DNA of 64,000 nt from an uncultured bacterium (GTDB lineage Bacteria; Cyanobacteriota; Vampirovibrionia; Gastranaerophilales; Gastranaerophilaceae). Below are positions 5,084 to 59,839 of this stretch, in pieces. How positions within the stretch are numbered: the first letter of the stretch is position 1; each line of letters opens with the position of its first letter. The notes under the pieces were generated by a model that did no database searches, was not told where the DNA came from, and saw only the letters and a list, made by a program, of their open reading frames with translations. The position numbers and the translations under genes are program-made. Location of the stretch: contig CATLLJ010000003.1 of assembly GCA_950022495.1 (NCBI GenBank), positions 12,277 through 76,276 of the forward strand. The letters are read 5' to 3'.

Positions 5084-5427
5084 AATAATTTTTTGATTGC
5101 TAGTGCAATATCAATTATTACCAATAACTTTTTAAAATCTTTATTTAAAAAGAATGAAATAAATTTAATATAATTATTGGGTGTTAATATTTTAGTACAT
5201 TCTTCTTTTTTCTTGTTTACAAATTGATCTATATTGTTTAATTTTAATAGGAATGAGTTAATTGAAATTCTTGTATTGTTAAATATTTCAGGTATTTTTG
5301 TTTTAAAATCAAGTACCTGTTTATTTGTTTCGCAAACTAACTTGTTGAATGCAATAATTTTTGAAATTATCCAGCCGGCAATTATTAATTCTGCTATAAA
5401 AATTGTTGTAAAAAATAAACCTATCAT
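5074..5427 (-). CDS. hypothetical small membrane protein
   Basis: 117-aa ORF with one N-terminal TM. The RBS is weak and the 3' end overlaps the neighbouring terminator hairpin. Confidence 0.35.
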   Translation of the reverse strand: MIGLFFTTIFIAELIIAGWIISKIIAFNKLVCETNKQVLDFKTKIPEIFNNTRISINSFLLKLNNIDQFVNKKKEECTKILTPNNYIKFISFFLNKDFKKLLVIIDIALAIKKLLKK

Positions 5428-5511
5428 CTTTTATCTTTTCTTACTTTGTATTATATTATATTTATAATATATCATTGCATATTTTTTGTAATACGTCAAA
5501 AGGACTATTTT

Positions 5512-6855
5512 ATGGAGAGAATAAGATTCTATACCGCACTTGTTATTGCACGATTTATATATGTGGCAATTAAATTGTTGAATAAATCTTCGGGTACCTC
5601 TTTTGTAGGTATGGTTGTATTGAAGATTTGTCCAAATTTTTTATCGTATTTCCGCAAATATATAAATAAAGGTTCTGTATTTACAATAACCGGAACCAAT
5701 GGAAAAACGACAACATCAGGGTTGCTTTCTAATATTTTTGAAAAAGACGGGCAAAAAATTATCCATAATGTTAAAGGTGCCAATATGCTTACGGGTGTTG
5801 CGAATGTCTTCGCACTAAATATATTCCCGTTTTGTCACTTTGACAGTGCGGTGATTGAATCTGATGAAGCATATTTAACCAAATTATATGACTATTTTAA
5901 AGCGGATTATCTTTTAGTTACAAATTTGTTCAGAGATCAGCTTGATAGATATGGTGAATTAACAACTACTGCCGGATTTATTCAAAATGCGATTGATAAA
6001 GATGAAGAATTAACTCTTATTTTAAATGCAGATGATCCACTGGTTACAAACTTTGGTAAAAACCGTCAAAAAGTTAAGTATTTCGGGTTTGAAAATGTCG
6101 AAATTTGTTCAGAAGTTCATAGTTCTGTTTCTTCTGCACCTTCAGAAAATTTTAATTGTATCTGCGGTTCTGCATTGAAATACCATAAACAATTTTTTGC
6201 TCAGGAAGGTCACTATTATTGTGACTCTTGCCAATATCACAGACCTGAGCCTGATTATAAAGGCTATGTTAAATTGTATAATGATTATTCTAATTTAACT
6301 GTTGTTTGTAAAGATAAGCAATATGAATTCAGGGTAAATTTAGTAGGTCTTTACAATGCTTATAACGTTTTGGGTGCAGTTGCTGCAGCTTTAGAAAAAG
6401 GTATTCCTTCAGATACTATAAAAGAAGCGGTAAGTTCTTATAAATCAATTTTTGGCAGAACTGAAACCCGTATAATTAATGGTCATAATGCATTGATTCA
6501 ACTTATCAAAAATCCGACCGGAGCCAGTGAAGTATTGAAAACTGTTGATTTGTCGTCAAATATTGTGATTGCAATAAATGACAATTACGCTGATGGCAGA
6601 GATATTTCGTGGCTGTGGGATAGTGATTTTGAGCAGTTGAAAGATGCCAAAGGGCTTGTTATTACGTCAGGTATTCGTGCTAAAGATATGGCTGTAAGGC
6701 TTAAATATGCCGGAATTTCGCAGGAAAAAATAATTGTTGAAGAAGATATTAAGACAGCTATTGAAATTGCGGCTAAATCTGATAATATAGAAGAAAGAAT
6801 TACAATTTTGCCTTCATATACGGCTTTGTTAAAAATAAGTAAATTGAAATTTTAG
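5512..6855 (+). CDS. murT: Mur ligase family protein, MurT type (lipid II isoglutaminyl synthase subunit)
   Basis: P-loop TGTNGKTTT. A Cys4 ribbon CICGSALKYHKQFFAQEGHYYCDSCQYHRP is typical of MurT. The C-terminal region resembles DUF1727. I moved the start to the ATG at 5512 (MERIRF..., AAGGA upstream); the ORF track starts at 5446. Confidence 0.7.
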   Translation: MERIRFYTALVIARFIYVAIKLLNKSSGTSFVGMVVLKICPNFLSYFRKYINKGSVFTITGTNGKTTTSGLLSNIFEKDGQKIIHNVKGANMLTGVANVFALNIFPFCHFDSAVIESDEAYLTKLYDYFKADYLLVTNLFRDQLDRYGELTTTAGFIQNAIDKDEELTLILNADDPLVTNFGKNRQKVKYFGFENVEICSEVHSSVSSAPSENFNCICGSALKYHKQFFAQEGHYYCDSCQYHRPEPDYKGYVKLYNDYSNLTVVCKDKQYEFRVNLVGLYNAYNVLGAVAAALEKGIPSDTIKEAVSSYKSIFGRTETRIINGHNALIQLIKNPTGASEVLKTVDLSSNIVIAINDNYADGRDISWLWDSDFEQLKDAKGLVITSGIRAKDMAVRLKYAGISQEKIIVEEDIKTAIEIAAKSDNIEERITILPSYTALLKISKLKF

Positions 6856-6866
6856 AAAGGGTTATT

Positions 6867-7577
6867 ATGCTTTTAGGTGTAAATATTGATCACGTTGCAA
6901 CAATTAGAAATGCCAGAGGGGGTGCGGAACCGGATCCTATACTAGCGGCAGAAGTCTGCGAGGCTAATGGTGCGGATTCAATTACTGCACATTTAAGAGA
7001 AGATAGACGTCATATTAAGGATGTTGATATTCATATACTTAAAAAAGTAATAAAAACAAGATTAAATATGGAAATGGCTGTCACTGATGAAATGCAGAAA
7101 ATTGCACTTGAAGTTAAGCCTTATTCTGTTTGTCTGGTACCTGAAAAACGTCAGGAAGTCACTACTGAAGGCGGATTGGATGTTGCAGGTCAGTTAAACA
7201 AAATTACCGAATTTATTTATCCTTTAAAGGATGCAGGTATTATTGTAAGTTTATTTATTGACCCGACAGAAGAACAAATTCGTGCAGCTGCAAAAACAGG
7301 TGCTCAATTTATAGAATTGCATACAGGTCAATATTCAATGGCATTTGGCACTGCCCAGGAGCAGGAAGAATTTGATAAAGTCAGAGAAGCTTCAAGATTA
7401 GCCACTGCTTTGGGCTTGAAGGTTAATGCAGGTCATGGTTTGAACTATGAAAATGTTCATAGAATGCGTCAGATAAAAGATTTATATGAATTAAATATCG
7501 GTCATAGTATAATTTCAAGAGCTGTATTTAAAGGCTTGCCGCAGGCTGTCAAAGATATGGCGGATTTAGTTAAGTAG
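6867..7577 (+). CDS. pdxJ: pyridoxine 5'-phosphate synthase
   Basis: LGVNIDHVATIRNARGG..PDP, HLREDRRHI and GHGLNY are canonical PdxJ blocks. Confidence 0.9.
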   Translation: MLLGVNIDHVATIRNARGGAEPDPILAAEVCEANGADSITAHLREDRRHIKDVDIHILKKVIKTRLNMEMAVTDEMQKIALEVKPYSVCLVPEKRQEVTTEGGLDVAGQLNKITEFIYPLKDAGIIVSLFIDPTEEQIRAAAKTGAQFIELHTGQYSMAFGTAQEQEEFDKVREASRLATALGLKVNAGHGLNYENVHRMRQIKDLYELNIGHSIISRAVFKGLPQAVKDMADLVK

Positions 7578-7584
7578 GGTTATT

Positions 7585-7911
7585 ATGGAAAAATCAAAAG
7601 AAGAAATTATAGAAGAAATGCAGCAAGTTGCACAACAAATGGTCATTGATGATATTGAAGAAAATCCTGATATTGCCAATGAGTATTTTGACTGTGATTG
7701 CTGCGGTAAAAATAAATCATTAGCAGGTTCCATTAGATATGGTGATTACAGATTATGCAATGACTGTGTGTTATTAGCCGAAACAGGTTTTGCATTAGGT
7801 AAAATCATGGATATTCAAGATTTAATGGATGCAATGGAAGATAAAAGGCTCGAAGAGCTTTGTACGTTTGTAAAAGAAGAAGAAGCCAGAAAAAATAATT
7901 TGGATAATTAA
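7585..7911 (+). CDS. hypothetical small protein with CxxC...CxxC zinc-ribbon-like motif
   Basis: 108 aa with FDCDCCGKNK...YRLCNDCVLL. I recognise no family. Confidence 0.5.
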   Translation: MEKSKEEIIEEMQQVAQQMVIDDIEENPDIANEYFDCDCCGKNKSLAGSIRYGDYRLCNDCVLLAETGFALGKIMDIQDLMDAMEDKRLEELCTFVKEEEARKNNLDN

Positions 7912-7923
7912 AGGAGGTCTTAA

Positions 7924-8623
7924 ATGTTACATAATAAGGGATTTTTCGGGGGGGGGTAACCTCTTAAAGCTTACTAATAGTGCATTTGAACGGTTCGCAT
8001 TTACCCTTGCCGAAGTTTTGATTACATTGGGAATAATCGGTGTTGTTGCAGCTATGACTATTCCTACAATGATTACTAACTATCAAAAACATGTTGTAGA
8101 AACTAAATTGACCAAATTTAATTCTACCCTTAACCAAGCCCTAAGGATGTCTTCTGCTGAAAATGGTGATCCTGATGCATGGGTTACTCAAAATAAGAAT
8201 TACACCTACAACGAAAATGTTGAATTTTTGCATACTTATTTTTTCCCATATATAAAATATTTACATTACGTACCATGCTCAAATGATACATCAAATGTTT
8301 GTATAACTCTTTTAGATGGTATATTTTTCCGATTTAGAATAGATGGAAATGGTGGTGATATTACCTACTTTTTAGACGGTGACGTAACTCGTCGTCACCC
8401 TCGAAATAGTTTTCAATTTCAATTTACTAAAAAGAGCGGTATAAATTCAACAGTAAATAGTACAAGCTTTGTCGAACCATATATTTATAGTTGGAATGGT
8501 ACGATGGAGCATTTGAAAAATGGTAATACCTGGGCTTGTAAAAGAGGTTGTACAAATTGTGGATATTGTACAAAACTAATCCAGTTAAATGGATGGAAAA
8601 TTCCTAAAGATTATCCATGGTAA
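7924..8623 (+). pseudogene. prepilin-type N-terminal cleavage/methylation domain protein with its frame broken at a G9 tract (phase-OFF state or homopolymer sequencing error)
   Basis: AAGGAGG (7911-7917) and the ATG at 7924 open an 11-codon frame, MLHNKGFFGGG*. The pilin frame (ORF track 8018..8623) continues upstream as ...SAFERFAFTLAEVL with no ATG, GTG or TTG. Removing one G from the 7948-7956 run joins the two frames. The N- and C-termini are paralogous to 48595..49275. Confidence 0.65.
7948..7956 (+). repeat. homopolymeric G9 tract
   Basis: Nine consecutive G in an AT-rich genome, placed between the start codon and the prepilin FTLAE motif. Confidence 0.95.
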
Positions 8624-19319: not shown

Positions 19320-20189
19320 ATGGACATACAGCTTTTGTCAGAATATCTGGAATATATTGAAGTAGAAAAAGGACTTTCTCTAAATACTGTTGATGCGTAT
19401 CGTCGTGATTTGACAGAATTTATTGATTTTTGTGCTTCAAATGGAGCCGGTGATATTGTAGATATTAACAGGAACCATTTAAATTCATATATTTTGAGTT
19501 TACGAGAAGGTAATTTAAATCCTCGTAGTGTCGTAAGAAAAATTGCTTCCTTACGCGGATTTTTTAAGTGGTTGTGTGCGAATGAATATATTTCAACTAA
19601 TCCAACACTTACGCTTGAACAGCCTAAACTGCCTAAAAAATTACCGAAGGTTATTTCAGTAGATGAAATAACTGAAATTCTTAATTTTGATTTGAATAAA
19701 GAAGAAGCTTTAATTGTGGAATTATTGTACGGATGCGGACTTCGGGTATCTGAACTTGTGAATTTAAAATTAAGTAATATCGATTTGAAATCAAAATATA
19801 TCCAGTGTTACGGCAAAGGCTCAAAAGAACGGGTTGTTCCGTTTGGCAAAAAAGCCAAAGTTGCATTGGAAAAATATTTAAAATATCGGGATTTGATTAT
19901 CTTACAGAATAAACTTTCTGACACTAAGATTTTATTATTAAAATCTGATGGTAAATCTGTTACAAGGCAGGATGTTTATAATTTTATTAGAAGTCTGGGG
20001 GAGAAAATCCATAAACATATTTCGCCTCATACTTTGCGGCATAGTTTTGCTACACATTTATTAGAAAACGGTGCTGATTTAAGGGTTGTGCAGGAACTGC
20101 TGGGGCACAGTGATGTTGCAACAACTCAGTTATATACGCATATTACGAAGAAACGACTAAAAGAGGTTTATTTTGCAATAAATAAATAG
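19320..20189 (+). CDS. xerD: site-specific tyrosine recombinase, XerD-like
   Basis: [13 protein letters not shown] near the N-terminus. The C-terminus reads [38 protein letters not shown] (R..HxxR..Y catalytic set). The LGHSD..TTQ.YTH block resembles XerD more than XerC. Confidence 0.7.
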
Positions 20190-20207: not shown

Positions 20208-20927
20208 ATGCTAAATATATTTATATCCGGTTTAGAAAGACAATCAGGAAAGACGCTTATAACTGCAGGGTTAGCAGGAACAATGCAGAGTTTGAATTAT
20301 TCAACTCGTGTGTTTAAGCCTATCCAGACAAATGCAAATGAGCTAAACGGATTTTCACAATCTCAGGATTTAGCTTTAGTTAAACGTATTGATTCTAACA
20401 TTGAAACAGTTTCCAGTTATATGTTCAAAAGTTCATATTCTCCACTGGTTGGGGCTTATGATGCCGGAATTAAAAATATTGATTTAAACACAATTTATAA
20501 TGATTATTATTCAAATTTGCAGCTTTTCGAATGCAATATTATTGAAGGCTCAAACAGCATATCAACTCCGATTGGTGAAAAGTTTTCAGAAATTGATATT
20601 GTTAAAACTTTAAATATACCATTAGTTCTTGTTGTTAACCCTAAGAAATCAAATATTGATAATGTTATTATGGGTGTTAAGTATATTCAGAATGCAGGTG
20701 TCGCTTTTCAGGGGATTATAGTGATCGATTATGATGAAGATTCTGAAAATCTTGAAGAGAAATATTATCCTGAAATGATAAAAGAATTTACAGGGACACA
20801 GGTTATTGGTACAATTCCGCATTATGATAATGTTGAAGGAATGACTCCGGATACGCTGATTGGTAATATTTTGAACAATGTTAAAATCGAAGAGCTTTTT
20901 GGCGTTAGAATAGCTAAGTTAATTTAA
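20208..20927 (+). CDS. dethiobiotin synthase-like ATPase paralog (degenerate motifs)
   Basis: Colinear with the canonical BioD at 59138..59839. The P-loop is GLERQSGKT versus GTDIGKT, and IIEGSNS replaces IVEGAGG. Confidence 0.45.
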   Translation: MLNIFISGLERQSGKTLITAGLAGTMQSLNYSTRVFKPIQTNANELNGFSQSQDLALVKRIDSNIETVSSYMFKSSYSPLVGAYDAGIKNIDLNTIYNDYYSNLQLFECNIIEGSNSISTPIGEKFSEIDIVKTLNIPLVLVVNPKKSNIDNVIMGVKYIQNAGVAFQGIIVIDYDEDSENLEEKYYPEMIKEFTGTQVIGTIPHYDNVEGMTPDTLIGNILNNVKIEELFGVRIAKLI

Positions 20928-51141: not shown

Positions 51142-51192
51142 TTTATACACTTGATTTTAAACCTTTTTTTGATATGATAGTTTTACATTGAT

Positions 51193-51269
51193 GGCGCCTG
51201 TCGTCAAGCGGTTAAGACCTCGGATTGTGGTTCCGATATGCATGGGTTCGAATCCCATCAGGCGCCCCA
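51193..51269 (+). tRNA. tRNA-His (anticodon GUG) with genomically encoded G-1 and CCA
   Basis: GGCGCCTGTCGTCAAGCGGTTAAGACCTCGGATTGTGGTTCCGATATGCATGGGTTCGAATCCCATCAGGCGCCCCA. The anticodon loop is TTGTGGT. The extra 5' G pairs with C73. Confidence 0.9.
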
Positions 51270-51279
51270 TTTTTATAAG

Positions 51280-51305
51280 AGAGTCTTTTATAGACTCTTT
51301 TTTTA
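51280..51305 (+). terminator. rho-independent terminator after tRNA-His
   Basis: AGAGTCT-tttat-AGACTCT followed by TTTTTTT. Confidence 0.7.
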
Positions 51306-51322
51306 TTGATAAGGATTTCACT

Positions 51323-52606
51323 ATGCAGTTTATTGACAAGGCAAAAATTAAAATTTCATCAGGCAAAGGCGGAAACGGTGTTGTTGCCTGGCGTCGTGAA
51401 AAATTTGTTGATAAAGGCGGACCTGCCGGCGGAGACGGTGGTAAAGGCGGAAGCGTTTATCTTGTTGCGGATGAAGGTCTATCTACTCTTTTAGATTTTA
51501 CTTATAGATCAATTTTTAAAGCGGATAACGGTGAAAACGGTTTTAAAAAGAGTATGCATGGTAAAAGTGCTAAGGATTTGTATATAAAAGTTCCAACAGG
51601 AACAATTGTAAAAGATTTAAAAACCGGTAATGTCATTGCTGATTTAACACATCATGAACAGACTGTTCTAGTTGCTCAGGGAGGTCGCGGCGGAAGAGGT
51701 AATATTCATTTTTGTACTCCGCAAAATAGAGCACCTCAATATTGTGAACCCGGCGAACCGGGGATTGAACGTGAACTTCAGCTTGAATTAAAGCTTCTTG
51801 CTGATGTTGGTCTGTTAGGGTTACCGAATGCCGGTAAATCTACTTTTATCAGCCGTGTTTCAGCAGCAAAGCCAAAGATTGCAGATTATCCTTTTACTAC
51901 GCTTGTTCCAAATCTAGGTGTTGTAAGAAAACACAACGGCGACGGGTATGTAATTGCTGACATCCCGGGATTGATAGAAGGGGCTTCTGAAGGTGTCGGG
52001 CTGGGACATGATTTTTTAAGACATGTTGAAAGATGTCGTTTACTTCTTCATGTTGTTGATGGAACTGAAATCGACCCTATTAAAAATTTCAATATAATAA
52101 ATGAAGAACTAAAAAAATATTCTGAAACACTATCAAAAGTTCATCAAATTGTTGCAATTAATAAAATAGATTCAATTGATGAAGAAACATTGGAACACTT
52201 GAAAAACGAATTTGTTCAACTCGGTGTTGAAGTATTTTGTATTTCCGCTGTTACGGGTGAAAATATTGAAGCTCTAAAAAATGAACTAGAACATAAGGTC
52301 GATACTATTGAGAAACCTGTTTCTGATATTGTTATAGAAGAAGACTTTGAAGCAACTAACAATGACGATGGTTATTGGGAAGTCCATAAATTAAATAAAG
52401 ATACATATCTTGTCACCGGCGGAAGAATTATCAGAATTTCGCAAGTAACTGATTCCAGAAGTACGGAACAGGTTATCCGTTTCCAGAATATTATGATAAG
52501 TATGGGGATTATGGATGAATTAAAACAGCTCGGTGTTCAAAACGGAGATACCATTATTGTTGGAAAACTTGAACTTGAATACTGGGATGATGAAGTTTAT
52601 AAGTAA
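51323..52606 (+). CDS. obg: GTPase Obg/CgtA
   Basis: MQFIDKAKIKISSGKGGNG, glycine-rich Obg fold, GLPNAGKST, DIPGLIEGA and NKID blocks, plus a C-terminal OCT domain. The ORF-track start at 51188 runs through the tRNA and was not used. Confidence 0.95.
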   Translation: MQFIDKAKIKISSGKGGNGVVAWRREKFVDKGGPAGGDGGKGGSVYLVADEGLSTLLDFTYRSIFKADNGENGFKKSMHGKSAKDLYIKVPTGTIVKDLKTGNVIADLTHHEQTVLVAQGGRGGRGNIHFCTPQNRAPQYCEPGEPGIERELQLELKLLADVGLLGLPNAGKSTFISRVSAAKPKIADYPFTTLVPNLGVVRKHNGDGYVIADIPGLIEGASEGVGLGHDFLRHVERCRLLLHVVDGTEIDPIKNFNIINEELKKYSETLSKVHQIVAINKIDSIDEETLEHLKNEFVQLGVEVFCISAVTGENIEALKNELEHKVDTIEKPVSDIVIEEDFEATNNDDGYWEVHKLNKDTYLVTGGRIIRISQVTDSRSTEQVIRFQNIMISMGIMDELKQLGVQNGDTIIVGKLELEYWDDEVYK

Positions 52607-56415: not shown

Positions 56416-57312
56416 ATGAGCAATATAAATATAGGGAAAATTTTATCGTTTTTACTTTTAATTCTGATTTTGGGCGGTATTGTTGTAACTTATTTTTCAC
56501 ATACGTATATTCGGGCTGAATTCAAAAAAATGGACCCGATGCCGGCAAGAATGGGGGTATATTATAAGGGTTATAAATTAGGTTCAACAAATAAGTTAAA
56601 AATTTCAAAGGACTTTAAAAAAACATATTTATACATAACTCTTAATCAAAGAGGATTGCATTTACCAAAAAATATAACTGCACGCATAAAAAATTATGAT
56701 GAAGATACAAAATATGTTGACCTGATTTATCCATCTGCACCTATGCTTAAATATATCAGGACAGGGGATACAATTAAGGGCGAATCAGGGTTTACATTTA
56801 GCGGAATTTCAGATATAAATCAGGCTCACCTTGATGATTTATCCGAAAAGGGTGAAAATTTACTGAGTTCAGCCACTAAGGCAACCGATTCTTTAACTGA
56901 ACTATTTGATTTAATAACAGATATTCTTACAGAAAATAGAGAAAATATTCACGAGTCAACGACATATTTGAAAAACAGTATGTTAAATCTTGAAGCTACA
57001 ACCTGGAGTCTCAAGGATTTGTCAGGTAAGATAAATGATGAGGTAACCCGTAAGACTATTAGAAACAGTGCGAATAATCTTGAACAAATTACTTCAAATT
57101 TTGCGTATACTTCTAAGGATTTCATATCAATTTCAGGTAATTTTAATAAGACAAGTTCTGATTTCTCTGTGCTTGTGCCAAAACTAAGTGTCTTGATTGA
57201 TGCGGTGCAGTTAGTTGTCTGCAATGTAAATGACATTGTAGTCGGAGTGAAGAAAACTTTGCAAAAGAAATTTGGCGGAGCAAGGATAATTTTCGGTAAA
57301 CCAATGAGTTAA
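56416..57312 (+). CDS. MlaD/MCE-like membrane protein
   Basis: N-terminal TM, an MlaD-like beta domain (GVYYKGYKLGSTNKLKISKDFKKTYLYITLN...ARIKN) and a helical C-terminal part. Confidence 0.5.
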   Translation: MSNINIGKILSFLLLILILGGIVVTYFSHTYIRAEFKKMDPMPARMGVYYKGYKLGSTNKLKISKDFKKTYLYITLNQRGLHLPKNITARIKNYDEDTKYVDLIYPSAPMLKYIRTGDTIKGESGFTFSGISDINQAHLDDLSEKGENLLSSATKATDSLTELFDLITDILTENRENIHESTTYLKNSMLNLEATTWSLKDLSGKINDEVTRKTIRNSANNLEQITSNFAYTSKDFISISGNFNKTSSDFSVLVPKLSVLIDAVQLVVCNVNDIVVGVKKTLQKKFGGARIIFGKPMS

Positions 57313-57340
57313 GGGGGGAATAACATATATTATGTTAAAA
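57313..57340 (+). other. dif-like XerC/XerD recombination site (candidate chromosomal dif)
   Basis: GGGGGGAATAA|CATATA|TTATGTTAAAA compared with E. coli dif GGTGCGCATAA|TGTATA|TTATGTTAAAT (quoted from memory) matches at 8/11, 4/6 and 10/11. It lies in a convergent intergenic region where gene orientation switches. Confidence 0.6.
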
Positions 57341-57771
57341 GGCTCTATTCTTCATTTCTTTCTCTTGCTTGTTAGCTCGCAATAAACGGGACTACCGCCA
57401 AAGCTCAACGCTTTGAGCGTTCGCCCTCTGCTCGCTATACGCTTTATTGCGAGTAAAAGAGAAAGAAACGCAAGCAAAGAATGCGTAAGCCGGAGTGTAA
57501 GCACTCGCTCGGCGGCGTTGAGCCGGCGAAGAAGTGCTGAACTTAATATCTACGACGTAAGAGCGTAGCTCCACAGGAGTAGAAAGAGAAAAACGCGACC
57601 AAATGAAACGAGTTATCAGGGGCAAAGCCTCCGAACCCCCATAGGCTAAAGGAAGGTTCGGAAACGTAGTTTCTGATAACTCGAGCAATTTAATCCTGCG
57701 TGTTTTCTTTTCTTTCCGCCCATTTCTTTTCTTTTGCATCGCAATCAAAAGAAAAGAAATGGGCAAAAGGG
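57341..57771. other. GC-rich, ORF-free, highly structured 431-bp cargo between two inverted dif-like sites (candidate structured RNA or miniature Xer-dependent element)
   Basis: My hand count gives about 45-60% GC per 60-nt line, against AT-rich flanks. Perfect helices are 57718-57736/57746-57764 (19 bp), 57609-57619/57673-57683 (11 bp), 57631-57637/57655-57661 (7 bp), 57376-57386/57443-57453 (11 bp) and 57355-57364/57459-57468 (10 bp). Confidence 0.55.
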
Positions 57772-57799
57772 AGGTTACATAATATATGTTATATCATAT
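57772..57799 (-). other. second dif-like site in inverted orientation
   Basis: The minus strand reads ATATGATATAA|CATATA|TTATGTAACCT. The XerD-side arm matches B. subtilis dif TTATGTAAACT (from memory) at 10/11. The central region is identical to the left site. The site overlaps the bioA stop codon. Confidence 0.5.
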
Positions 57800-59138
57800 T
57801 CTCCATAACTTCAGTCATGCATTCTTTTGCTATATCAGTTACATAATCCATGTCTTCAGGCTGGATAATCAATGGCGGATTAAAATAAATTACATCCCCG
57901 AGCGGTCTGAGCAGTACGCCTTTTTTCAACGCCTTTTTATATATCTGATAACCTAAACGCAAATTTGATGGATAAGATTCTTTTGAGTTTTTATCCTTTA
58001 CTATTTCTATTGCATTTACAAGACCTATGTGGCGAATTTCTCCAACATAAGGCAAGTCTGCAAATTTATCATTAATAATTTTGTTAAAATATTTTGCATT
58101 TTCTACTGCTTTTTCAATAATTTTTTCATCTTCCAGTATATTTAACACTTCTATTGCCGCAGAACACGCAAGAGGGTTTCCTGCGTATGTGTGGCTGTGC
58201 ATAAAAGCTTTCCCTTTACCGTAATCATCATAAAATGCGTCGTAAATTGGTTGTGTTGTAACACAAATAGACATCGGCATATAACCGCCTGTTAATCCTT
58301 TTGAAAGACACATAATATCCGGTGATACTCCTGCGTGGTCAAATGCAAACATTTTGCCTGTACGTCCATAACCTGTGGCGATTTCGTCAGCAATAAGATG
58401 GACATTATACTTGTCACATAGTGCACGTAATTTTTTCAAATAAAGCGGCGGATAGATTTTCATACCAGCTGAACCTTGTAAAAGCGGTTCGACAAGCATT
58501 GCACAGGTTTCATCTCCGTATTGTGCAAATGTCTGTTCTGCTTTTTCAAAACATTCACAATTACAGTTATCGCGGCATTTACCATACGGACATCTGAAAC
58601 AGTCCGGACCTTGAACTCTTACAACATCCATTAAAATCGGCTTGTAAATTTCAGAATATAGATCACATGCCCCGACGGATAGTGCACCTATTGTTTCTCC
58701 GTGGTAAGCATCTGATAATGCCATAAAGCGTTTTTTCTTTGTGTTTCCTGTCTGCTGGTGGTATTGAAAACTCATTTTCATTGCCATTTCAATTGATGCT
58801 GAACCATTGTCTGCAAAGTTAAATTTGCATAAACCTTCTGGTAAAACTTTCATTAGTTTCTGGCATAAAGTTATTGCAGTTTTGTGTGTAAAATTTGCAA
58901 AAATAACGTGTTCTAGTGTGTCTAACTGCTTTTTCATTGCGTTATTTATTCGAGGATTGCAGTGTCCTAAGAGGTTGCACCACCACGAACTTATTACATC
59001 TTTATAGCAATTCCCGTCAATGTCATATAAGTTTATGCCTTTTGCGTGGTCAACTACAATAGGCGGAAGTGTTTCGTAGTCTTTCATTTGTGAACACGGG
59101 TGCCATATATATTTTAAATCTTCTTCCTGCCAATTCAT
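57789..59138 (-). CDS. bioA: adenosylmethionine-8-amino-7-oxononanoate aminotransferase
   Basis: 449-aa class III aminotransferase with DEIATGYGRTGKMFA and LSKGLTGGY (PLP lysine). It is coupled to bioD by a TAATG overlap. Confidence 0.9.
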   Translation of the reverse strand: MNWQEEDLKYIWHPCSQMKDYETLPPIVVDHAKGINLYDIDGNCYKDVISSWWCNLLGHCNPRINNAMKKQLDTLEHVIFANFTHKTAITLCQKLMKVLPEGLCKFNFADNGSASIEMAMKMSFQYHQQTGNTKKKRFMALSDAYHGETIGALSVGACDLYSEIYKPILMDVVRVQGPDCFRCPYGKCRDNCNCECFEKAEQTFAQYGDETCAMLVEPLLQGSAGMKIYPPLYLKKLRALCDKYNVHLIADEIATGYGRTGKMFAFDHAGVSPDIMCLSKGLTGGYMPMSICVTTQPIYDAFYDDYGKGKAFMHSHTYAGNPLACSAAIEVLNILEDEKIIEKAVENAKYFNKIINDKFADLPYVGEIRHIGLVNAIEIVKDKNSKESYPSNLRLGYQIYKKALKKGVLLRPLGDVIYFNPPLIIQPEDMDYVTDIAKECMTEVMENMI

Positions 59139-59839
59139 TATATACCTTCTTTCGGGATAAATAATCCTATTAAATTTTCTTTCGTGATGTTTAAGTCAGT
59201 ATCGCCTTTCGTAACTGTTGCAATTACTTTTACTCCGGTTAGGGCTTCGACTTGTGTTTTGTTATCTATGTGCATAAAATCATTTTTGTCATAGTTGTTT
59301 AAAATAATCCCGAGGATATTAAGTCCTCGTGTTTTTGCATATTCAATTGTAAGCAGAACCGAATTTATTGTGCCTAAACCTCCGTCAGCTACAACTACTA
59401 TGCCTAAATCTAAAGCTTTTATAATATCGGGAAGCAGTATTTGTTTGTTGTTTAAATTAAATGGACATGTAATGCCTCCGGCTCCTTCAACTATCATATA
59501 ATCATAATTTTCAGACTTTTTCTTATAGTCAGATTTGATTTTTTCGATATCAATATCAACCCCGAGTCTGGCCGCTGCAAGATGCGGCGAAACTGCTTCT
59601 TCAAAACAATAAGTAACACAGTCTTCCGGTTTAACTTTTAATCCTGCTGTTTGTATTACAAAATCACAATCGCCGGGTAAAAGGCGGCCGTCTGATTGTC
59701 TGATGGCTCCGCTTAGTGCAGGTTTATAGTAGCCGCAGTTTAGTTCAAAATCTTTCATTTTTTTTACAAGTAATCCTGATACATAAGTTTTTCCTATATC
59801 AGTACCTGTTGCTGTTATAAATATTGATTTACAACTCAT
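59138..59839 (-). CDS. bioD: dethiobiotin synthase
   Basis: IFITATGTDIGKTYVSGLL P-loop, YYKP and IVEGAGG blocks. Confidence 0.9.
   Translation of the reverse strand: MSCKSIFITATGTDIGKTYVSGLLVKKMKDFELNCGYYKPALSGAIRQSDGRLLPGDCDFVIQTAGLKVKPEDCVTYCFEEAVSPHLAAARLGVDIDIEKIKSDYKKKSENYDYMIVEGAGGITCPFNLNNKQILLPDIIKALDLGIVVVADGGLGTINSVLLTIEYAKTRGLNILGIILNNYDKNDFMHIDNKTQVEALTGVKVIATVTKGDTDLNITKENLIGLFIPKEGI

Follow-up and report, generated by a model that had tools for sequence, protein, structure and literature searches.

A naturally inverting, non-coding element between dif-like sites on a Gastranaerophilales chromosome and its dispersed family

The dif site is composed of a 6-bp central region, in which strand exchange takes place, between 2 arms of 11 bp, and mobile DNA with dif-like sites that uses the host Xer system, such as the CTX phage and the gonococcal genetic island (IMEX), has been described (PMC5357621). 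The closest known counterparts of the element reported here are the dif modules of Acinetobacter, which are found on Rep_3/OrfX plasmids in D polarity, with the XerD-type arm internal, and in C polarity, and which include an ORF-less D module (PMC13141974). DNA located between inverse pdif sites with identical spacers inverts in Acinetobacter, and XerC is required for this (PMC13141974). Chromosomal dif modules have been reported in Acinetobacter sp. M10 (PMC12907356); together with the ORF-less D module they render outdated the statement, in an earlier interpretation of the DNA studied here (the sequence-only reading), that no such module had been described. In the cyanobacterial clade dif has not been defined (PMC3025954), and no literature linking Gastranaerophilales or Melainabacteria to invertons or to repeats of this kind was found.

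We analyzed a 64-kb stretch of a Candidatus Gastranaerophilales (Melainabacteria) chromosome, here called the window, in which 2 dif-like sites bound a short segment between the 3′ ends of 2 convergent genes. The features of the locus are as follows.

56416 to 57312, plus strand: MlaD/MCE-like gene on the left flank, with its stop codon 7 nt before the inverted repeat; unaltered by the inversion.
57313 to 57340, plus strand: left dif-like site, with outer arm GGGGGGAATAA, spacer CATATA (57324 to 57329) and inner arm TTATGTTAAAA; identified from the sequence, a pattern scan and comparison with family, dif and pdif sites.
57320 to 57792, no strand: invertible segment, consisting of 16-bp perfect inverted repeats and the 441 bp between them; its exact reverse complement occurs in another natural assembly.
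57772 to 57799, minus strand: right dif-like site, in minus-strand reading with outer arm ATATGATATAA, spacer CATATA and inner arm TTATGTAACCT; identified from the sequence and a pattern scan.
57789 to 59138, minus strand: bioA-like gene for a class-III aminotransferase on the right flank, running toward the MlaD-like gene; the element supplies the final codons and the stop codon of bioA.

The sequence ATAACATATATTATGT was located at positions 57320 to 57335 on the plus strand and 57777 to 57792 on the minus strand, with no further copy in the 64 kb when up to 2 mismatches were allowed, for which 0.27 matches are expected by chance. The 2 copies form an inverted repeat of 16 nt with 100% complementarity and 441 nt separating the arms. 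The 28-mers around them, 431 bp apart, share the CATATA spacer and have their TTATGT arms pointing inward, and a scan of the 64 kb for NTAA-N6-TTATGTWA returned only these 2 sites and one weaker match at position 1940. Both the perfect repeat and the pair of inverse dif-like 28-mers with identical spacers had been proposed in the sequence-only reading and were confirmed by the scans. The XerD-type arms are internal, as it had also stated, which is the geometry of the Acinetobacter D module (PMC13141974), and at the sequence level the window pair has what defines a dif module in that genus, namely 2 inverse 28-bp sites of 11-6-11 layout.

The GC content of the element interior was 0.43 to 0.50 versus about 0.19 to 0.39 in the flanks (about 33% for the genome), the right site included the bioA stop codon (57789 to 57791) in its outer arm, and the cargo contained no credible ORF, all of which agrees with the earlier description. 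The only long ORF in the cargo (57392 to 57766, minus strand, TTG start, 124 amino acids) was rejected as coding; it had no Pfam match, and most of its stretch is missing from the shorter element of a sister lineage. An SD-like GGGAGG followed by an ATG at position 57786, reading antisense into bioA, is not kept in the sister lineage and was also rejected. The context of the element is chromosomal, with housekeeping genes on either side. The bioA gene belongs to a bioA-bioD-ShlB-type Omp85 block on the minus strand, in which bioD (59138 to 59839) adjoins bioA, and a BLAST search with the element against plasmid and phage collections gave no match. It was also noted that the Obg GTPase ORF elsewhere in the window (51188 to 52606), as listed and in public assemblies, begins upstream of a same-strand tRNA gene (51194 to 51266) and overlaps with it; the true Obg start is probably located downstream of the tRNA gene.

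A look-up of exact matches to the MlaD-like and BioA proteins yielded about twenty contigs from the same species. In the assembly GCA_948956345.1 (loci L002/L012), the segment corresponding to positions 57320 to 57792 was reverse-complemented between identical flanks, and inversion of this segment in silico reproduced the sequence of that assembly over 701 bp with zero mismatches. Inverted junctions were also present in 3 Logan contigs from public sequencing runs (L009, L018, and L019). Variant positions within the cargo showed that the window-type haplotype occurs in both orientations, and the same was true of a haplotype that is about 6% divergent (L001/L005 versus L018). Furthermore, a sister lineage with an MlaD identity of 94% contained a shorter homologous element whose repeat, ATAACATATATTAT, has only 14 bp, and this element too was found in both orientations; its inner arms, TTATAGACATA and TTATGGAAGAA, retain TTAT alone of the conserved arm, and it flips nonetheless. 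Since 2 haplotypes and the sister lineage are each found in both orientations, at least 3 independent flips must have taken place at this locus. The breakpoints of the inversion fall inside the shared core of 14 to 16 bp, and the predicted inversion was thus borne out by independent assemblies. We conclude with high confidence that the window segment is a natural site-specific inverton.

From the recurrence of the flips we infer that switching of the element is ongoing; both orientations were not seen in any single sample. Contigs that end inside the cargo were first taken to indicate that samples contain both orientations, a reading that was then rejected. Their ends coincide with multi-copy segments of the repeat unit, and they therefore represent ordinary repeat breaks and were not counted.

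The element is absent from 4 related lineages with MlaD identities of 82%, 83%, 83%, and 74%, in which the gene order is kept and the ends of the mlaD-like gene and bioA either overlap or are 35 nt apart, with the intervening 35 nt forming a hairpin. Of the empty state with a single dif site that had been suggested for relatives, the empty state was thus found, but no dif-like site was identified at the junction in any of the 4 lineages. This argues that the whole segment of about 485 bp is an insertion and not a resident dif, and there was no target-site duplication at the junctions of the element. Another lineage, the third of this kind (MlaD 84% identical), carries an element at the same mlaD-like/bioA junction (L107, 2497 to 2592); here the left site, AATAA-CAAATA-TTATGTAAAAT, adjoins the stop codon and differs by one base in the spacer, and the contig stops within the element.

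These results do not uphold the location at the chromosomal terminus that had been assumed earlier. The empty junctions of the relatives lack a dif-like site, repeat-unit copies lie scattered across a complete chromosome of 2.24 Mb, and the GC-skew sign in the window switches wherever the gene strand switches, so that the skew provides no independent evidence for a terminus. That one of the window sites is the chromosomal dif itself was likewise rejected, on the grounds that there are 2 sites, that both are missing at the 4 empty junctions and that the units are dispersed over the 2.24-Mb chromosome. The element shares with IMEX the dif-like sites and, if our reading of the enzyme is correct, the use of the host Xer. 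However, IMEX are located at a resident dif and bounded by direct repeats, whereas the element has inverted sites, as the sequence-only reading had emphasized, a target without dif in relatives, and dispersed copies.

The cargo in the window consists of 2 repeat units in opposite orientation. The order within a unit is a pyrimidine arm (Y), a loop (RTTGCGAKN), a purine arm (R1), a short linker, a purine tract (R2), and a conserved 27-mer.

57350 to 57637, plus strand: repeat unit 1, interrupted, with Y at 57350 to 57368 and R1 at 57455 to 57469.
57651 to 57764, minus strand: repeat unit 2, intact (nhmmer E = 2e-33 against the unit profile).
57746 to 57764, minus strand: Y of unit 2.
57737 to 57745, minus strand: loop of unit 2.
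57718 to 57736, minus strand: R1 of unit 2.
57702 to 57717, minus strand: R2 of unit 2.
57651 to 57677, minus strand: conserved 27-mer of unit 2.
57658 to 57676: 19-bp palindrome within the 27-mer of unit 2.

Unit 1 contains a recurrent insert of about 75 nt in the hairpin loop, its R2 is split (57470 to 57481 and 57581 to 57596) by another recurrent insert of about 100 nt, and its 3′ motif is degenerate (57597 to 57637). The central hairpin of the element (57609 to 57683) is formed by the 3′ motifs of units 1 and 2 paired together. Within a unit, R1 is the reverse complement of Y and R2 is the mirror of R1, its sequence being reversed without complementation. In 16 distinct variants (family loci L043 to L104), the positions of G change together in Y, R1, and R2, with mirror matches of 9/10 to 16/16, and because R1 and R2 are related as mirror images, Watson-Crick pairing cannot account for this pattern. 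Mirror-repeat constraints of this kind are a known hallmark of H-DNA or intramolecular purine-motif triplexes.

The 19-bp palindrome, TCRGAAAC-N3-GTTTCYGA, is located in the most conserved part of the unit. It was also found bare, as 2 tandem copies and 1 solitary copy (6123 to 6172 and 8254 to 8274), in a viral contig from IMG/VR (L106), where the copies are intergenic and placed like operators upstream of divergently transcribed genes. Its occurrence alone in intergenic DNA suggests that the palindrome is a protein-binding site. With its pyrimidine-purine hairpin, mirror purine tract and palindrome, the repeat unit looks like a DNA-structure cassette, and these features point to a function at the DNA level, with a transcript possible in addition.

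The MlaD-like and bioA ORFs are identical in both orientation states, and a scan of the element interior identified no sigma-70-like promoter and no terminator-like site. Since the neighbors are unaltered, no detectable promoter is moved and the 2 units are alike, we find no output of a switch and read the inversion as a by-product. In this respect, the element differs from classical invertons, such as fimS with FimB/FimE, hin and the Bacteroides invertible promoters. It resembles them as a short segment flanked by inverted repeats, with both orientations present in natural populations, but no promoter or coding segment is re-oriented, it sits between two 3′ ends, and no dedicated invertase adjoins it. 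It is also a recent insertion that is missing from relatives, and it belongs to a multi-copy family.

A search with a 21-mer from the cargo, CAGAAACTACGTTTCCGAACC, identified 62 loci in species-representative genomes, nearly all of which were Candidatus Gastranaerophilales MAGs, with up to about 17 repeat-unit loci per genome. Matches in the complete 2.24-Mb chromosome were located in the 8-kb blocks that start at 256, 344, 416, 512, 816, 984, 1136, and 1360 kb, while the units in the 64-kb window are confined to this element. A subset of the unit-bearing genomes contained a total of 14 elements of 280 to 540 bp, each enclosed by 2 inverted sites that have the same 6-bp spacer. Among 284 core-site pairs, identical spacers were observed in inverted orientation 14 times, versus 0.53 expected, and in direct orientation once. 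The search for further copies of the cargo at dif-like sites, which the sequence-only reading had suggested, was in this way successful, and the window element is part of a previously undescribed multi-copy family of miniature elements.

The consensus of the family sites is ATTACCTATAA-N6-TTATGTAAAAA. Sites near units consist of a variable arm ending in ATAA, N6 and then TTATGTAA, and core matches distant from units look random. The spacers vary among elements (CATATA, TATTAT, CATAGT, TAATAT, TAAACA, AAAGTA, and TATTGT) and are identical within an element. The consensus arms match pdif site 1 of pMSHR_A204 (sequence from PMC13141974) at 17/22 positions, and they match the dif sites of B. subtilis and E. 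coli at 17/22 and 15/22 positions, respectively. The outer arms in the window, GGGGGGAATAA and ATATGATATAA, are a poor match to the outer-arm consensus of the family. The conserved arm points inward in the window, L092, and L097, and outward in L046, L050, L054/L061, L072, L078, L091, L098, and L099. The 14- to 16-bp repeat of the window was found around the other 62 copies only at the orthologous locus of the sister lineage (L064); the other elements of the family have the same site architecture and different spacers.

One of these also occurs in both orientations. L054 (MGYG-HGUT-00385, 944 to 1455) and L061 (ERR9578265_bin.11, 2445 to 2950) share flanks in one direction and contain a 512-bp cargo in opposite directions, with breakpoints at 14-bp cores, the spacer TAATAT and the conserved arm outward. 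As in the Acinetobacter dif modules, both polarities are thus found, and so is inversion between sites with identical spacers, at the window locus and at this second locus. The differences are that the elements described here belong to another phylum (Melainabacteria) and are chromosomal, solitary, and dispersed, whereas the Acinetobacter modules form alternating C/D arrays on plasmids. Moreover, they are only 280 to 540 bp long, always non-coding and built on a conserved structured unit, and no OrfX-type partner was seen.

Several variants of this organization were noted. The repeat units in OZ006972.1 (L043, L053, L059, L063, L077, L083, L086, and L088) and in BRZ_KE bin57 have no adjoining ATAA-N6-TTATGTAA sites; instead, they carry one or more palindromes of the GCAAACATGATGTTTGC type and other G-rich repeats, which indicates that the unit is also carried in another repeat setting. 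In L092, 2 modules with inward arms (5198 to 5667 and 7460 to 7984) are located 1.8 kb apart, and all 4 sites have the spacer AAAGTA, so that recombination between the modules could invert or delete the intervening genes. A 542-bp element with outward arms (L050, 983 to 1524) recurs at no fewer than 6 loci of MGYG-HGUT-02077, including L049, L062, L070, L071, and L090. In this longer element there are extra hairpins, and one end carries a truncated unit.

We favor the interpretation that the element is a chromosomal, miniature, and non-coding analogue of the Acinetobacter dif modules and that a tyrosine recombinase, probably Xer, flips it. In this reading, the non-coding module inserted between the 3′ ends of the mlaD-like gene and bioA on the Candidatus Gastranaerophilales chromosome is bounded by 2 inverse tyrosine-recombinase core sites of 11-6-11 dif architecture with the TTATGT(A/T)A arms inward. 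Strand exchange would take place in the 6-bp spacer and would be catalyzed by the host Xer recombinase, for which there is one candidate gene in the window. Flipping would be a by-product of a mobile, selfish or neutral module that exploits Xer, and not a phase-variation switch.

19320 to 20189, plus strand: Xer-type tyrosine recombinase of 289 amino acids, 37 kb from the element; candidate enzyme of the inversion.

The protein matched E. coli XerD with a phmmer E-value of 1.5e-55 and NCBIfam PRK00283 with 310.7 bits (cut-off 279), its score of 319 bits against TIGR02225 (XerD) was just below the equivalog cut-off, and all 6 of the aligned catalytic residues, R-K-H-R-H-Y, were present. Directly downstream is a second BioD-like gene of the dethiobiotin synthase family (20208 to 20927), which scored just below the TIGR00347 cut-off. 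On the basis of site sequence, the host Xer is probably the enzyme of the inversion. Two observations bear on how it would act. The flipping of the sister-lineage element with only TTAT kept indicates that the arm requirement is loose, and the presence of similar cargo with the arm inward or outward is easier to reconcile with a single recombinase acting on both arms than with a strict XerC/XerD pair. Canonical Xer action at dif requires FtsK and is tied to the septum, and dispersed sites pose a problem for the Xer model.

The inversion could alternatively be the work of a dedicated non-Xer invertase encoded elsewhere in the genome, either a tyrosine recombinase of the Rci/Fim type or a serine recombinase, acting on a genuine inverton whose likeness to dif is that of a generic core site. 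Such an enzyme would fit the loose arm requirement in the sister lineage, the occurrence of either site polarity among elements, and the partial recombinase-like ORFs at 2 family loci (Xer-like in L072 and Hin-like in L047). It would also fit the combination of one conserved and one variable arm, which characterizes the sfx sites of the shufflons inverted by Rci on IncI plasmids. However, shufflons are clustered, swap the coding ends of pilV and have rci adjoining, none of which applies here. A search of the 64 kb for recombinases and invertases identified nothing apart from the Xer-type gene and none adjoining the element, no recombinase gene recurred near the 62 family loci, and both consensus arms match dif (17/22) in an 11-6-11 layout. 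We therefore consider a dedicated non-Xer invertase unlikely.

Recombination at Xer-type sites is favored far more clearly over inversion that needs no site-specific enzyme and arises at short inverted repeats by replication template switching or by RecA-dependent recombination. Any inverted repeat can occasionally invert, and the hairpin- and triplex-forming cargo could stall replication forks. However, repeats of 14 to 16 bp are under the length usually needed for efficient RecA-dependent recombination, the flips recur between otherwise identical sequences, and neither the architecture of the sites nor the matching spacers in 14 elements would be needed for such a mechanism, which makes it improbable.

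Even less probable is a transposase-mobilized MITE whose terminal inverted repeats are 16 bp long; the 2 orientations would then result either from excision followed by re-insertion or from separate insertions into one and the same target. The unit is indeed multi-copy and dispersed, with many contigs breaking in the cargo, and perfect terminal repeats would make an opposite insertion indistinguishable from an inversion. Like MITEs, the Neisseria Correia elements, pneumococcal BOX, and enterobacterial REP/BIME, the family is short, non-coding, multi-copy, modular, hairpin-rich, and intergenic, with inverted termini. It differs from them in the absence of a target-site duplication, in having recombinase sites with a variable 6-bp spacer at its ends, in its inversion in place and in the covariation of the mirror tract. 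A search of the family loci identified no transposase, and at least 3 changes of orientation at one site, involving resident haplotypes that are old and diverged, with another change at a second locus, argue against repeated insertion. A 6-bp block that varies between elements and matches within them, flanked by ATAA and TTATGTAA, is moreover the pattern of a recombinase spacer and untypical of transposase ends.

A structured non-coding RNA gene or bidirectional terminator/insulator, with the 16-bp repeat as its closing helix and a coincidental likeness to dif, would suit the high GC content in a low-GC genome, the position between convergent genes, the plain hairpin found there in relatives and a folding better than that of shuffled sequences on both strands (z-scores of -8.8 and -10.1), but it is as improbable as a MITE, given that searches of Rfam (permissive for the region, at gathering thresholds for the whole window) returned only sub-threshold matches to generic hairpins and no family, that no promoter- or terminator-like site is present inside, that 2 inverted units and their hairpins account for the strong fold, that the supposed closing helix is AT-rich and equals the exact inversion breakpoint, and that the mirror-repeat covariation is not something that Watson-Crick pairing of RNA can produce.

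Returning to the dif-module interpretation, we tentatively propose that gut Melainabacteria may harbor an unrecognized class of miniature, non-autonomous elements, a chromosomal and non-coding counterpart of dif modules in bacteria other than Acinetobacter, that exploit Xer or an Xer-like recombinase to invert and probably also to move, and whose cargo would combine a hairpin and a mirror tract that co-evolve as a triplex beside a palindromic protein-binding site. For assembly, the consequence is that the elements cause breaks when these genomes are assembled from short reads. The three-way covariation between the hairpin arms and the mirror tract is rare comparative evidence for a selected structure of the triplex or H-DNA type in bacteria. 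The family offers many natural variants of arm and spacer for defining the minimal needs of a dif-like site, as well as an initial lead to the as yet undefined dif of the cyanobacterial clade. If Xer drives the flips, modules bounded by dif sites would not be peculiar to Acinetobacter plasmids, which would imply a wider use of the housekeeping recombinase by small DNA segments, with the chromosomes of an uncultured and medically relevant gut lineage as their host.
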